DNA from: Thermodesulfobacteriota bacterium
Lineage (GTDB): Bacteria > Desulfobacterota_D > UBA1144 > Nemesobacterales > Mycalebacteriaceae
Direction: 5' to 3'
Assembly: GCA_965198945.1 (NCBI GenBank)
Contig: CBDAQI010000013.1
Location: 191,160-255,159 of the forward strand
DNA: 64,000 nt
Shown here: positions 45,001 to 51,000 of the stretch, in pieces
How the letters are laid out: each line of letters begins with the position of its first letter
How positions within the stretch are numbered: the stretch's first letter is position 1
Made by a program: the position numbers

Positions 45001-48000
45001 TGAAAAGGGAAAATATCAATTTAGGGGGTGAAAAATCGGGACACCTGATTTTTTCCGACCATTCAACAAACGGAGACGGTTTGCTTGCAGCCCTTTTTGT
45101 CGCGGACATTGTAAAAAGAAAAAATAAACCTCTTTCACAAATCCTGCCGGAATTTGAGATGTTTCCGCAAATTCTAAAAAATGTCCGGGTTTCCCGAAGA
45201 AAGGAGTTTGAGCTGATATCAGGTCTTCCGGAAACTGTTGCAAAACTTGAGAAACAGCTTGGAAAAGGCGGAAGAATCCATCTCCGTTATTCCGGAACGG
45301 AACCGCTTGCGAGAATTCTTGTTGAGGGAGCGTCTCAAAATTCTGTTGAAAAAACGGTCGATGAGATCTCAGCCGTTATTGAAAGTTCAGTTGGAGAAAA
45401 AAGTGGCGGAACTCAATGTTAACATAGACCACATAGCGACAATCAGACAGGCACGGGGCGGAACGGAACCGTCTCCCGTAAAAGCCGCACTTGTGGCTGA
45501 GAAAGCGGGAGCGTCGGGTATTGTCGCACACTTGAGGGAAGACAGACGGCATATAAGCGATAAAGACCTTTACGAACTGAAAAAATCCATTAGTACAAAA
45601 TTGAATATGGAAATGGCGGCAACCAATGAAATGGTTGAAATAGCTCTGTCGGTCTCTCCCCATATGGCGACTCTTGTGCCCGAAAAAAGAGAGGAATTAA
45701 CAACCGAAAACGGTCTTGAAATATCAGGGAATCAGGAGCGGATAAAAAATGTGATTTCCGTGCTTTCGGAAAAAGGCATAGAGGTGAGTCTGTTTATAGA
45801 CCCGAGTTTTGAGCAGATAGAAGCTGCGGCGGACATAGGAGCAAAATGGGTTGAAATACACACGGGAGGGTTCGCGGAAGATTCTCCGGATCAGGACAGG
45901 GAAAAAGAATTTGAACTTATAAAAAATTCGGTTTTATATGCGCTGGATCTTAAACTGCATGTTTCCGCCGGGCACGGTCTTGACTATACGAATGCGGGTA
46001 TTATCTCATCAATAAAAGGCGTTGAGGAATTGAACATAGGGTATTCAATAGTTTCAAGGGCGGTTTTTGACGGCATGGAACGTGCGGTGAAAGACATGAT
46101 TGAGGTGATGGGTTAAGAGACCGGTTAGACAGCGGAATCGCCCGGAGTTTTTCGTCCTTTCAATTTATTCATAAATTTTTGACAAAAATAAGAGACCGGA
46201 TTTCCACGAGATTTTGTCACCGTTGAAAGATTGCACCCATGGGGGTGGGGCAGAATCCCCGGTCCCGTAATTCCTATAGCCCAATAGGCACTATTGCATC
46301 TCTCTCGTCATTCCTATACCCCGATAGGAACTATTGTATCTCTCTCGTCATTCCCGTTTCTTCTCCGTCATTCCCGCATCCTCTCCCCTGTCATTCCCGT
46401 GGAAACGGGAATCCAGTATTCCGACAAATTTCTGTCATAAACCTCGGATTCCGTGTCAGGCAGATAATTACAGGGGGCAAGTTGGCCGTTTTTTAATTCA
46501 ACAACCGGTTCATTTCTCATCAGCAACCCTCTTAAACACAGCTTTTTATCTTTTTTTCATATTTTTAGTTGCCAACAAAAACAGTTTTTCCCTATAACAG
46601 TGCATAACCAAAATTTAATTCATAGGAGGATAATACTATGGGAACAAATTGGAAACTAAACAGTGTGTTTAACGGCGATGTGGAATTGTCCAAGGAAGAC
46701 ACTTACTACAATGTGGGCAGCTACGCGGTTCCACAAGACAGGATGCTGCTTATTACGGCGCGATTGAAATACACGCTGTTTGATCCTATCTCCAGAGGAC
46801 TGCCCTTCCCGGTAAAGACACAGACCTTTGCTGGTATGGTTTCGTCCAACTTTCTAAGGGAAGGAGGGGTTAGATACCTGGAGCTAGAATGCGGGCAGTT
46901 CAAAATATCGAGAGCGGTTTTGCGTGATTTTGACACGAAACTTGTGGTAAAAACTGAAGGAAGTGGCCATCAGTTGCAGATTGCAAAATGCTGTGAGGCG
47001 TCTGATGATTCAAAAGAGGAGGGAGGTTCTGTTGATGAGTGCCGGGAGACTGAAAAAAAGAAGAAAGTTCCGGGCGTGTTTAGAGAGGATCGTATCTCTT
47101 TTATTCCAACCAGCGATATAGAGGTGGAGATTTCTGAGGTTAAATCGGACCTTGCCGATGGGGAGGTAACAAACCCGAAGATTGCAGATGGGGCTGTTAA
47201 TACATCCAAACTTGCCGATGCGGCTGTTACTGCAGATCAAATTGCTGACCTTACAATAACACGGGAAAAATTGGCGTTTCGCATAAACGGTGCTGAGCCG
47301 GGGCGTAACACTATTCGTCCATACCATTTTCACGATTCAAAAGAGGTAACCAGACTAATATGCGAACCCATTTTGTTATATTCATCATCAAATAATTCTC
47401 ACACAACAAATGAAATAGTAACTCTGTCAGAACCAATTTTTAATTTTACTGATGTGGAGTTTTGCATCCGCACATCAGGGGGTGATGGCGCATATAATGG
47501 ATTGAATGCGGGCAAGGTTAGTGTGGGATGTGTTTTGCAGTCGGGAACATCAAACGGTTCCGGTCTTCTTCTTGTATCAGACCAAAATGGTCGACATGGA
47601 GAGGATAGGATTGAAATCAGGCGTGTTACATCATCAAACAACACTCGTTGGCGAATAATTAGGGAACAAGCGGGAGGGAGTTCTCCAACATTCCGCACAG
47701 TATCAGTTCGCGGGTTTCATCGCATTGCGGGGAACTATACCCGGGCTGAGCTTGATTTAATCAACGGGGGTAATTAGCAGCATAGCTAATCCAATCTTCT
47801 GAAAATGTGAGGAATTAGTTCTGTAGAAATTGAACGGGGAGTTTTTGCCTCCCCCTTCAATTTATTCGGGCAGTTTTGTTTTTATCAAATAAAGAGACTG
47901 GATTCCCACTTTCGTGGGAATGACGGGACAGAGCAATTTTTTGTGTTTCTCTGTCATTCCCTTGAAAACGGGAATCCAGTATTCCGACAAGTCCTTTCAT

Positions 48001-51000
48001 AAAAGCCGGATTTTGAAAAAGCCCTTTATTCACATAAACTTTTTTTCAGGCAGCGGTTTTTCAAAATGTCAAGGTTAGCGGTTGTATTGATTCTGGTTTT
48101 CCTCACCGCCGGTTGCGCCAGTTCGGGAGGAGGCGGAGAAATTTCTCTGAGACCGCCGCCACCTGCAGAAAGAATAATGGTGCAACTGTCTGCACAATCA
48201 TCTGTGGCAAGTCTCGCTCGCATTCCAGGAGTTGACGGAGAGGTCAACATTCAGCCACTTCCTCCAAAAAGTTTTGTGCCATTGCCAAAGCCTGTGAGGC
48301 TGCCCAAGTCTTCCCCGATGTTGAGAAGACCCATGAAACGGGGAACTCCCAATCCCGTAGTGTCGGTTGACCCGCCTGAGAGTTTTGTGCCGTTGCCGGA
48401 GCCTGTGAGGGTGCCCAAGTCAAGGGCTTCAATTATAAGTCATTGTGAAAATGTAAGGGGTTTTGACGACACAGCAGGTGTGACATTATGCAACCGTGCG
48501 AGAATACCGGGACTTATCCCTCTTTATAATCTTGTCTCGGCTGATATTGACAGAAAAATAGCCAACAAAGAAACAATAGAGAAAATCGGGGTGGTAATTG
48601 ATGTAGGCGATCACGGCAGGGCAGTGTTTAGGACAGCAGAAATTGCCACCAGGAAGGAACTACTTCAATATTTTGATGCGCCTGGTTCTTTTCAAATAGC
48701 ACAAAAGTTTAGAACAGAAGTAGCTGCCGGAAGCATAGTCAACATTTCTTTTGGAGGAATTTTTGTAACATCAGCATTATCATCAGTGAGGTCCAGGATT
48801 AGCCCTCAGGATGTGCGGATGTCCCGCTCTCTTCTTCTCTTACCTACCGGCAATTTCGAAGGGCCTGAACCTGCGCAAAGCCGGCAAGCTCTCAGAGAGA
48901 TTCATGCTTTGCCGGATGTGAACAACGCCGGTTCTGTTCTTCTGGTTGCGGGACTCACACAGAATAAAGCATTCCCGCTGACAGACGGAAACGGTTTTCA
49001 CAAAGGATACAGAGCCGTTCCTACCGATGGTATTCCTTTCCTTCAATACATCCGGACTCAAACCGTTGCGGAAGCGCGGCGGATTACTGTGTGACTGCAC
49101 CATACAGAGTTTATACAACAGTAAAAAACAGCAGACCTGTTTCAGCAAGGCGGTTTTTGCACGATGAATTCAATTATAAGGAGGGCACAAGTTTTTCCAC
49201 CCCCATTGTTATGGGCACACTTGTAAACCTGCGCTATGAGTGGCCTCATCTTACAAACCAGCAACTTGTAAAGCTCGCCTGCGTAACTGCAGTAGACCTT
49301 GGAGATCCGGGAAATGACCCCGTCTACGGTTGCGGTCAATTCTCCGTCTCAGCCATCTGGCTCCCCACGGGAGATCTTGTTGACCCAGCTGAATTGCTTC
49401 CCGTTGCCCGGGGCGACATAGCCGTATCCGGAGCATCTGTATCCGAACCCGTTGTCGTAAAGGGCTATGAAAACAACGAGTTTGCAAGAGACTATGAAAT
49501 TTCAGTTCCCCTTTCCGCTTCATCTTCTTCCCTGCGCATAGAACCGTCTGTCTCCTGGAACAGTATAAAAAGCATGATTGACTTCCGCGATTCGGGTTAT
49601 CTGTCAGTCCCCGTTGTGGACGGAGGAAGCGCCGCTCATCTTTTCAAAGGAGCTTTCTTCTTCATGAACGGGCAATACGGAGTGGGCAGAGCGGGCATAT
49701 CGCACACGAGCGGATTTTCCGTTGCATTTGAAAGAGAGACGGATTCTTTTTTCGGCAGTGTTGGCAGCGGTTCCTATAGATTCGGAGACACGAACAAGGT
49801 GATAGCGTCATTTGACAGGTATTTCGGGTTGGGCGACACATATGGGATAGGAGTGGGAGCTGCTGCGGCATATGGAGAGGTTGATCCCGTGTATTCACTG
49901 ATTAAATCAGCGAGGGGACATGCGCAGACGGCGCGAGTGTCATTTATGAGGCGGAAGAAGAATTTTGATGTCGGTGTGGAGTTTAACTACAGCACGGGGT
50001 TGAAGGGAGACATAACGGTTCAGAACAGGAACTATGAGTTGAATCCCGCTGATGAAAAGGGTGTTTTGTTTACAATGAGGTTTGTGATGTAGGGGATGCT
50101 TTTCTCTTCATTTCTGCATTTTCTCTGTCATTCCCAATTCTTTCCCCGTCATTCCCCTTTCTCCCGTCATTCCCGTGGAAACGGGAATCCAGTATTCCGA
50201 CAAGTCCTGCCATAAACCCTCGGATTCCGTGTCAGAGGCAGAATGACTTGAAGGGAGAAATAGCATCTTCGCCTAAGCGCAAATGGAAATACGGACAACA
50301 CAAAAGCGGATTCTAAGTTTTTTATCTGCATACACTTTTGGCGATTGCAAAAACATTTAATTCAATGCCGGATTATGTGTCTCACACAGAATAGCTAATA
50401 ATGAAAACAATGATGCTCTGTCATTTCTAATACTGGATTCCCGTTTCCACGGGAATGACGAGAGCGAGAAAAGACGATTCTGTTTAGTTCCGTATTTTCT
50501 CTTTCATTCCCCTGAAAGATTGTCCCTGTGAAAACGGGTGGGAATCGTGGGCAATGCAGCAAATGACACTCAACAAAGGCAATGTTGTCTGCCGGTGGAG
50601 AGAAAACGACAACAAAGCAACTCTTTATTCAAAAACAACTTTGTGTCTGCGCCCCGGAGAACAGACAGAACAAAACGCTCCACTTTGGTGTTACAACTGA
50701 CTTTCTACAATGTGTTTAATAAATACTGGATTCCCGCCCCCGTTTCCACGGGGACATGCTTTCATGAGGACAAGCTTTCACGGAAATGACGGAGAGGGAT
50801 AGAAAAAAACTTAAAAAGAGAACAAGGAAATCCAGTATTCCGGCAAAATCCACCATAAACTCAGATTGTATACCAAACACGGAATGGCTAATAACATAAA
50901 AAATGATTTCTTGTAAAAAGTAAGATTTTGCTCTCTTTTTCCATCTTTGCAGACATTAGAATATAATCCCAAAGGCAATATGATAATAGGAATTGGAACC

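Follow-up and report, generated by a model that had tools for sequence, protein, structure and literature searches.

NTS/SRM hairpins border inserted adhesin and protease genes and probably aid the copying and reshuffling of surface genes

INTRODUCTION

An island of surface genes lying between pdxJ and acpS is studded with short palindromes, and the question it raises is what these repeats are and whether they take part in moving and varying the genes they border. An earlier note on this DNA had equated them with the dRS3/NTS repeats of Neisseria. Such repeats may promote (Bentley 2007) or restrict (Chenal 2025) surface-gene exchange, and NTS-ssn-NTS may be a mobile element. In Neisseria, dRS3/NIME arrays lie beside cell-surface genes, as the repeats do here; a crossover at dRS3, paired with a RecA-dependent one within the gene, has been proposed, and 13 of 19 tbpB replacement fragments terminate in or near arrays (Bentley et al. 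2007, PMC1797815). The NTS, or SRM, has been linked to the GIY-YIG nuclease SsnA (cd10448; Chenal et al. 2025, PMC11893778): the 28-nt oriented hairpin flanked by GTC and CYRG is the same, as are the NTS-ssn-NTS architecture, which we also find in sister genomes, and the clustering beside membrane and host-interaction genes, and the motif is reported across phyla. Below, the window is the whole 64,000-nt stretch analysed, and G000 is the genome to which it belongs.

RESULTS

The repeats are NTS/SRM hairpins

The window holds five exact copies of ATTCCC-N8-GGGAAT (at 46393, 47902, 47956, 50169 and 50437), and 100 shuffles gave none. Our recount of G000 was identical to the earlier one, with 33 copies at spacer 8 and none at spacers 4-7, 9, 10 and 12. 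Spacers 0-3 and 13-15 were also empty, spacers 11 and 19 gave two copies each and spacers 16 and 17 one each, while five first-order Markov simulations yielded 0, 0, 0, 0 and 1 copies. The 24 copies previously reported with full flanks were recovered as 24 (CGTC...C-C) or 25 (CGTC...CYRG), and 31 of the 33 palindromes are set in GTC...CYRG, that is, with GTC before and C after the palindrome. The innermost stem pair is T-A in 21 copies, C-G in 11 and T-G in one, the pairs being compensatory, and DNA fold computation supports hairpins with stable stems.

Only seven G000 copies fit the published Neisseria NTS string CGTCATTCCCGCGMAVGCGGGAATCYRG at no more than one mismatch (five exactly; 27 fit when three are allowed) because the loop differs. 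Most copies diverge from the string at the loop and the inner part of the stem, reported to be dispensable for SsnA cleavage, and the motif retains GTC and the post-palindrome C, both of which SsnA requires (PMC11893778). The published degenerate SRM pattern matches G000 16 times, against 3-10 in five simulations, and the dominant loop variant falls outside it. The dRS3/NTS identification holds: the repeats are NTS/SRM hairpins, a known family that forms the ends of a small Ssn (GIY-YIG) element, SRM>ssn<SRM. In G000 the non-autonomous forms comprise solo, doublet and nested repeats as well as internally deleted units. The family had been called species-specific, a claim that we reject, as the strict motif is present in 18 of 61 genomes and a broader one in 38, with 281 copies in the sister genome G001.

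The repeat cluster of the window is an insertion between pdxJ and acpS

Orthologs of pdxJ and acpS overlap in G001 with no repeat between them, an empty site, and the repeat cluster of the window is an insertion into the pdxJ-acpS operon (Table 1). The island has a GC content of 45.5%, against 46% in flanking DNA.

Table 1. Features of the surface-gene island (window coordinates)
Feature	Position	Strand	Basis or remark
Surface-gene island, 4.86 kb	46117..50979	.	Insertion between pdxJ (end 46116) and acpS (start 50980)
Three tandem GTCATT half-sites (46307, 46347, 46367), pyrimidine-rich run	46307..46388	+	
Full SRM/NTS, GTC end towards pdxJ, pointing into island	46389..46416	+	8-bp stem, DNA fold
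Decayed second hairpin, G001-type subtype	46446..46471	-	Sequence compared with G001 arrays
Fibre-like protein, 379 aa, mosaic, in 10-ORF paralog family	46638..47777	+	PHROG tail-fibre match, E 2e-8
SRM directed back into fibre gene	47898..47925	-	Fold z -3.8
SRM directed into subtilase gene	47952..47979	+	Motif
Subtilase-family gene, frameshift near 49091 (ORFs 48066-49094, 49091-50092)	48066..50092	+	PF00082, E 2e-5
Tract of 1064 bp, 100% identical to C4 paralog	49184..50247	+	Start at GTSFSTP catalytic-serine motif
Doublet module: two half-sites, SRM 50165-50192 (+), 30-bp linker, reverse hairpin 50222-50247 (-)	50127..50247	+	
SRM directed into island	50433..50460	-	Motif, fold
Internally deleted SRM>ssn'<SRM unit	50503..50791	+	Alignment with G002 NTS-ssn-NTS
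ssn relic spanning the first ~30 codons, without the catalytic tyrosines, stops at end	50624..50722	+	nhmmer, translation
Decayed doublet, 5' end of outermost hairpin towards acpS	50826..50888	-	

Near pdxJ, the decayed hairpin and the full SRM form a converging doublet. The fibre-like protein found no match in a Pfam search; its gene is 88% identical over 800 bp to a copy on contig C11, the similarity ending in a hairpin. The N-terminal half of the subtilase gene is divergent and its C-terminal half is shared with paralogs, and the tract identical to the C4 paralog ends exactly on the GTC of the reverse hairpin. The doublet module is identical at C4, C10 and C11. One X1 contig spans 46914-50194, including the frameshifted subtilase region, without differences. 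Contig depths are higher over the shared subtilase tract; these are depths, not copy numbers. The internally deleted unit consists of a decayed nested SRM (about 50503-50546), the ssn relic (nhmmer match 50659-50718, E 2e-4; reversed-genome control E 1.9) and a nested reverse SRM (50726-50791).

G000 keeps relics of ssn

An nhmmer DNA profile of ssn, built from genomes other than G000 only, matches six G000 sites (E 1e-5 to 3e-3), all between repeat pairs and all confined to profile nt 9-111; with a UPF0213 gene set aside, the next match has E 0.67. Each is a 5'-third fragment within a ~200-250-bp SRM>relic<SRM unit, and all six break off 40-44 nt past the G-V-T codons. The reported absence of intact ssnA is borne out in the G000 assembly (95% complete), and JGI metagenomes searched with the relic's conserved stretch for an intact parent gave no match. 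G000 has lost intact ssn from its assembly and keeps non-autonomous forms. The frameshifted GIY-YIG gene at C1:366.7 kb, previously taken for an ssnA remnant, proved to be something else: it matches UPF0213 structures at E 3e-11 and SsnA homologs at only E 7e-6, and it lies in type I R-M-like surroundings with no repeat beside it.

An ssn gene flanked by the motif is found in G001 and G002, not in G000. As had been noted, 13 copies in a sister genome, G002, surround ssn genes, two of them intact, together with four truncated 5' pieces; 110-bp tandem copies there begin about 9-10 nt 5' of GTC. G001 has two intact ssn genes, and the sequence common to both runs exactly from CGTC to GAATGAC; its Ssn, a protein of 96 aa, found no match in the PDB. 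No ssn was found in G004 or G005, and clear homologs (E <1e-20) occur in 28 of 61 genomes. The genus forms a natural series: G002 has the element only, G001 has it together with 281 repeats surrounding 30 autotransporters, G000 has repeats with relics, G004 and G005 have solo repeats, and G003 has none.

Repeats concentrate beside surface genes

With surface families picked after the repeats had been seen in G000, a copy lies within 700 bp of 13 of 18 surface-family ORFs against 37 of 1385 others on our own gene calls (14/18 and 43/1434 in the earlier note), and 19 of the 33 copies fall in 3.4% of the genome (about 4% before); the repeats thus flank variable cell-surface genes in the manner of NIMEs, and the reported concentration is reproduced. 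Counted by gap, SRMs occur in 13/27 G000 gaps that adjoin surface families, against 2/283 that adjoin other accessory genes and 7/829 between two core genes. The corresponding G001 counts are 30/42 beside autotransporters and YadA genes, 6/182 and 14/895. These counts reject, in both genomes, an association with accessory DNA generally. The bias also persists after a gap-size control (12/17 vs 8/167 among gaps of at least 300 bp). The G001 autotransporter label combines sequence clustering with one match, because one of the eight members scanned reached a Pfam beta-domain.

The earlier note had cautioned that copies duplicated together with paralog flanks are not independent. Within G000 the caution stands: four copies lie in one identical module, two more pairs are co-duplicated, and fibre genes have a homologous upstream SRM in common. 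It is largely answered by the sister genomes, by the gap bias in G001 and by G004, where no two of the 30 copies share more than about 50 nt of flank. Those copies border YadA-like and ankyrin genes as well as other accessory genes, and different members of the genus carry different SRM subtypes beside different gene families. About half of the ~30 repeat clusters of G000 lie away from its three surface families. SRMs are not required for expansion, since several expanded surface genes do without them: no SRM of the tested pattern was found at four G005 subtilase loci, the G001 subtilase ortholog or the G002 and G003 YadA genes, and none at the G000 fibre gene C11:42876, ankyrin genes or amplified glycosyltransferases.

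Border copies point into accessory DNA

In G004 and G005 together, all 18 scored border copies have GTC towards the core and point into accessory DNA (p 8e-6; about 17 of 18 when checked by hand, one being probably core-core), nine at 5' and nine at 3' gene ends; one unscored G005 copy is oriented the opposite way. Hairpins nearest to the ssn genes of other bacteria point inward in 35 of 38 cases. Outside the genus the border polarity was not seen (G006 1/7, G054 3/8, G053 4/8; the core was weakly defined in this test). The G000 count of 7/9 is not significant (p 0.18) and is confounded by doublets, and G001 is uninformative because its arrays are +/- doublets. Nine G004 islands correspond to short gaps without SRM in G001, and in several G004 islands just one of the two ends carries an SRM. 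Synteny breaks in 9/17 SRM intervals against 71/998 others. Of the 18 SRM gaps of G000 that could be scored, six are occupied in G001 too, and some sites are therefore old.

Paralog tracts run from gene interior to SRM

The SRM-flanked genes are highly mosaic. Recent identical tracts between G000 paralogs extend from the gene interior to an SRM, ending 6, 0 and 1 nt 5' of GTC and, in one case, inside a nested SRM. In G000 no cassette recurs over its full length, each tract having one end within a gene. A precise-ended unit at two sites was seen for the ssn unit of G001 and not for cargo genes in G000 and G004. In G001 autotransporters an SRM lies in frame within the gene, and partner switches there reach the top bin (4), about as block length predicts.

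DISCUSSION

SRMs border inserted adhesin and protease genes, often pointing inward, and probably aid the copying and reshuffling of surface genes. We favour, with somewhat better than even confidence, the reading that they anchor cassette insertion and conversion of these genes; this recombination role is one that we infer, no event having been directly observed. An SRM would provide one recombination anchor, by offering portable homology or, in the time when Ssn was present, a place immediately 5' of GTC for single-strand cutting. The second crossover would be ordinary homologous recombination within the gene. Adhesin, fibre and protease genes would in this way be inserted, copied and converted, chromosome blocks would occasionally be inverted, and selection for surface variation would keep the products and so give rise to the bias. 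The newest G000 events probably need no Ssn.

An alternative, which we consider unlikely, is that Ssn mobilises SRM>cargo<SRM as a unit, a composite single-strand element in which cargo replaces ssn between inward hairpins. The identical geometry at ssn genes (35/38), at the relics and at the G004 YadA and ankyrin genes, the islands with SRM-free empty sites, the G001 unit ending exactly at GTC and the start of the G002 tandem copies all suit such an element. However, SsnA has been shown to cut only, not to join, in the main text of PMC11893778, and the cut about 4 nt 5' of CGTC deduced from the oligo numbering there sits poorly with two junctions at 0 nt. Moreover, ssn was not found in G000, G004 and G005, an SRM borders just one side of several G004 islands, the G000 tracts stop within a gene on one side with no end-to-end duplicate, and genomes outside the genus did not show the polarity.

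The repeats might instead be selfish miniatures that settle in any tolerant gap, their bias arising from co-duplication with paralog flanks. Such an origin would account for the shared module and co-duplicated pairs of G000, the homologous SRM upstream of fibre genes and the old sites shared with G001, but it is quite improbable, given that G004 flanks are unique, that differing subtypes border differing families in each species, that the bias withstands the gap-size and accessory-gene controls, and that neither polarity nor GTC ends would be expected. Stable stems and positions at gene ends recall REP-like RNA elements, terminators or stabilisers of highly expressed surface genes; this we hold to be extremely improbable, because orientation tracks the island border rather than transcription, copies lie on both sides of genes and in frame, and SsnA is described as lacking RNA binding (PMC11893778). 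Very unlikely, too, is that SRMs are restriction marks, with Ssn cutting incoming single-stranded DNA and lowering replacement of flanked genes. This mechanism has been demonstrated in N. meningitidis, and G001 would be equipped for it: both of its ssn genes are intact, it carries 281 repeats, and the frames of comEC and dprA are unbroken. Yet three of the five repeat-bearing genomes of the genus have no ssn that we could find, the flanked genes are highly mosaic, either orientation would restrict, which leaves the polarity unexplained, and comEC, present with dprA in G000 as well, is split there, in an assembly prone to indels (63 of 1026 shared genes short, against 6).

Beyond the anchor role that we favour, we tentatively raise the possibility that Ssn and its hairpins make up a cargo-carrying mobile system, in which a 95-aa GIY-YIG single-strand nuclease and host repair insert and reshuffle genes between inward SRMs, and which the genus has used repeatedly, with differing SRM subtypes, for its surface repertoires. 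MITEs are amplified internal-deletion derivatives and composite transposons carry cargo between two inward ends, both of which SRM units resemble; unlike them, SRM units have no transposase, and we know of no joining activity for Ssn. If true, the system would capture genes and diversify the cell surface without transposase or integrase, having built repertoires of adhesins, autotransporters, fibres, proteases and ankyrins in a host-associated-looking genus. It would explain why dRS3/NTS arrays adjoin variable surface genes and add a route of bacterial gene capture and surface variation. The fixed border polarity, empty sites and GTC junctions allow a direct test with one small enzyme.

A literature search that covered few subscription papers found neither a description of Ssn cargo cassettes nor any paper reporting the repeats from this lineage. 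The main text of PMC11893778 makes no mention of the inward border polarity or GTC tract ends seen here; unlike the NTS/SsnA systems described there, G000 has no intact ssn and has an SRM>ssn'<SRM deletion family with nested and doublet forms. Unlike NIMEs (PMC1797815), its repeats number 33 rather than hundreds, and its tracts join paralogs of one genome. RAYT and IS110/Piv found no support as repeat partners: the only Y1-like gene of G000, at C11:6.9 kb, has no repeat cluster, and an IS110/Piv-type recombinase was found in none of five genomes. REPIN/RAYT and BIME systems (Bertels and Rainey 2011, PMC3116915; Loper et al. 2012, PMC3390384) do share with the SRMs inverted doublets, non-autonomous forms and a tie to a small single-strand DNA enzyme, which here is a GIY-YIG nuclease and not a Y1 transposase. 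REPINs spread randomly and leave strain-specific genes in REP deserts, whereas the bias in G000 is the opposite.

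Identity and ancestry of the repeat

The repeat at the window's surface genes is the NTS, or Ssn-related motif (SRM), of Chenal et al. 2025 (PMC11893778), an oriented hairpin with GTC before its palindrome and an element of a known kind. In that paper, the Neisseria nuclease SsnA binds the hairpin as single-stranded DNA; it depends on the C that follows the palindrome and on the three bases that precede it, and its cut falls a few bases upstream. In the assembly of the source genome, G000 (1.39 Mb, 14 contigs, 95% complete), the palindrome occurs 33 times with spacer 8; spacers 0–7, 9, 10 and 12–15 gave none, and spacers 11, 16, 17 and 19 gave 2, 1, 1 and 2. 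GTC at the 5′ side and CYRG at the 3′ side accompany 31 of the 33 copies, and the inner stem pair (T-A 21, C-G 11, T-G 1) varies as expected were the hairpin conserved. With nested and doublet forms added there are about 30 clusters, roughly half bordering three surface families (fibre-like, subtilase and YadA).

The family had been taken to be species-specific, which did not hold: the strict motif occurs in 18 of 61 genomes and a broader motif in 38. Among sister genomes of the genus the broader motif was counted 281 (G001), 14 (G002), 0 (G003), 30 (G004) and 15 (G005) times. Matches to an Ssn profile at E<1e-20 were obtained in 28 of the 61 genomes, G001 and G002 among them, with no such match in G003, G004 or G005. 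In G000 the profile reached only E 7e-6, at the frameshifted GIY-YIG gene mentioned in the earlier note; this is a UPF0213 protein, not an ssn relic, in a restriction-modification-like locus without repeats.

The real relics are six 5′ ssn pieces, found with a DNA profile (about 294 nt) built on ssn genes of other genomes (E 1e-5 to 3e-3; the next match, the UPF0213 gene aside, had E 0.67, and the reversed genome gave 1.9). All six fall within profile nt 9–111. Each aligns to the 5′ part of the NTS-ssn-NTS arrangement of G002 and then abuts a reverse hairpin, always 40–44 nt past the G-V-T codons; one internal deletion was therefore amplified. The copies are 70–80% alike, except for a co-duplicated C10/C13 contig pair. 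All the relics lie between repeat copies. The G000 repeats thus descend from an Ssn element once carried by the lineage. In G002, all 13 strict copies lie within 2 kb together with two intact ssn genes; four 110-bp tandem units there each combine an SRM with the first ~20 ssn codons, joined ~9–10 nt 5′ of GTC.

Surface-gene bias

The genes pdxJ and acpS overlap in G001 and are separated by 4.86 kb in G000. Contigs of four runs (two samples of one study, possibly the source) match the window, one covering 46914–50194 without differences, frameshift included. No contig spans the 1064-bp repeat with both flanks, so that phasing beyond 50247 is that of the assembly; the branch points themselves are real with either flank. 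The three G000 subtilases have identical C-terminal and divergent N-terminal halves, and the fibre genes are mosaic. Among 1026 genes shared with G001 (median identity 73%), 63 are much shorter in G000 and 6 the other way, so that many G000 frameshifts may be assembly errors; the break in the window subtilase, however, is matched by contigs.

With our own simple gene caller (1403 genes), a copy lies within 700 bp of 13/18 fibre, subtilase and YadA ORFs versus 37/1385 others, essentially reproducing the earlier counts. Repeats occupy 13/27 intergenic gaps beside these families, 2/283 beside other accessory genes and 7/829 core-core gaps; for gaps of at least 300 bp the figures are 12/17 versus 8/167. 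Because the families were picked post hoc and copies there are partly co-duplicated, sister genomes were tested. G001, covered as a whole chromosome, differs from G000 in its SRM subtypes and in possessing an autotransporter-like family of 30 members that G000 lacks. Repeats there occupy 30/42 gaps beside this family and YadA versus 6/182 (accessory) and 14/895 (core-core) elsewhere, and both ssn genes lie among the autotransporter-like genes. Flanks are unique to each of the 30 copies in G004; YadA-like frames have an adjoining copy in six cases and ankyrin genes in five, and no copy adjoins four other YadA frames of an incomplete list, three of them at contig starts. The proposal that the repeats mark variable surface genes stands as a bias; a role in recombination is inferred. 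The motif is absent at four G005 subtilase loci, the G001 subtilase ortholog, the G002 and G003 YadA genes, and the G000 ankyrin and glycosyltransferase expansions, which counts against SRMs being necessary.

Features of the window and related loci (L, contig regions; C, G000 contigs)
Feature	Position	Description
Window island	46117-50979	SRM>, fibre, <SRM SRM>, subtilase, doublet, <SRM, relic unit
Exact palindromes	46393, 47902, 47956, 50169, 50437	n=5; 0 in 100 shuffles
ssn relic	50624-50722	One of six
Tract C5/C6		Other end 6 nt 5′ of CGTC
Tract C4/window		Other end exactly at GTC
Tract C4/C11		Other end 1 nt 5′ of cryptic GTCATT in subtilase 3′ end
Tract C10/window		Other end within nested SRM
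Inverted block, G000	C1:264034-309849	45 kb, inverted versus G001, repeat clusters at both ends
Rearrangements, G000	C10:17-27 kb	Several, small; breaks also at SRMs
Y1-transposase-like gene, G000	C11:6921-7151	Single, ~290 aa, no adjoining repeats; in 4/5 genus genomes searched
GT2 glycosyltransferase modules, G000	L056 (C8, 13.4 kb)	Near-identical, tandem, entire contig; dRS3 copies 0
Six alternating SRMs, G000	L046 (C9, 4.8 kb)	Between ORFs without Pfam or PHROG match; end overlaps end of C10
ssn locus, G002	L035:8718-10700	Tandem units
Intact ssn, G011	L036:7049-11584	With five co-oriented SRMs between genes of a CRISPR-cas-like operon
SRM modules, G005	L160:5271-15371	Both sides of 3367-aa secreted-looking protein; no homolog in G000 or G001
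In-frame SRM, G001	L084:5604-5679	Autotransporter-like
In-frame SRMs, G005	L037:6027, 8422; L039:5738	TMEM260-like
SRM in ORF, G000	L053:6044-6071 (C11:63044)	DinG-like

Polarity, junctions and proposed mechanism

Of 45 copies in G004 and G005, 18 could be scored for polarity, with a core gene no more than 600 bp away on just one of their sides (25 had none nearby, 2 had core genes on both sides). GTC is turned to the core gene in 18/18, nine at 5′ and nine at 3′ ends (p 8e-6); by hand, one of them probably lies between two core genes, and a copy outside the scored set is opposite, giving ~17/18. The figure for G000 is 7/9, and G001 arrays, being doublets, are unscorable. The same inward layout is seen at ssn loci of other bacteria (35/38 nearest hairpins, 47 loci); three genomes outside the genus, with core defined from a distant family, showed no inward bias (1/7, 3/8, 4/8). 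At the sites of nine G004 islands, G001 has gaps of −4 to 550 bp that contain no SRM, so the repeats came with or after the cargo.

The four long identical G000 tracts each have one end within coding sequence and the other as tabulated, and the two G001 ssn copies share exactly CGTC to GAATGAC. Synteny breaks affect 9/17 SRM-bearing intervals versus 71/998 others; the two ends of the 45-kb inverted block are among them. A crossover inside two pre-existing repeats likewise leaves an apparent GTC end, so these junctions fit portable homology and Ssn cutting alike.

The data show what the repeat is, its ancestry, the surface bias, the empty sites and where the junctions lie. Beyond this, we propose that an SRM would provide one anchor of recombination and host homologous recombination the other, with selection presumably retaining surface variants; Bentley et al. 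proposed the same scheme for dRS3 (PMC1797815). A bolder reading, in which Ssn moves SRM>cargo<SRM as one unit, agrees with the inward geometry, but it requires a joining step that nobody has shown, no cargo cassette has been duplicated over its full length, and we consider it unlikely. The restriction role of Ssn described by Chenal et al. (PMC11893778) may apply in G001; in G000 it would not be current if ssn is truly absent, and comEC is split there, though that assembly is indel-prone. REPINs (PMC3116915, PMC3390384) form doublets analogous to SRM doublets; unlike SRMs, they spread at random and avoid strain-specific regions. The literature searched, mostly as listings, yielded no account of relic units, polarity with empty sites or junction precision.

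SRMs within coding frames

In 14 of 23 scorable members of the G001 autotransporter-like family an SRM lies in frame, 460–500 aa from the C-terminus, translated as a doublet, or in one gene as a lone SRM, at one homologous linker where some pairs change partner; the four switches there form the top bin, at about the number that block length predicts. Elsewhere, tandem TMEM260-like membrane proteins of ~750 aa in G005 carry an in-frame SRM close to the N-terminus, and a helicase ORF of G000 contains a full SRM.
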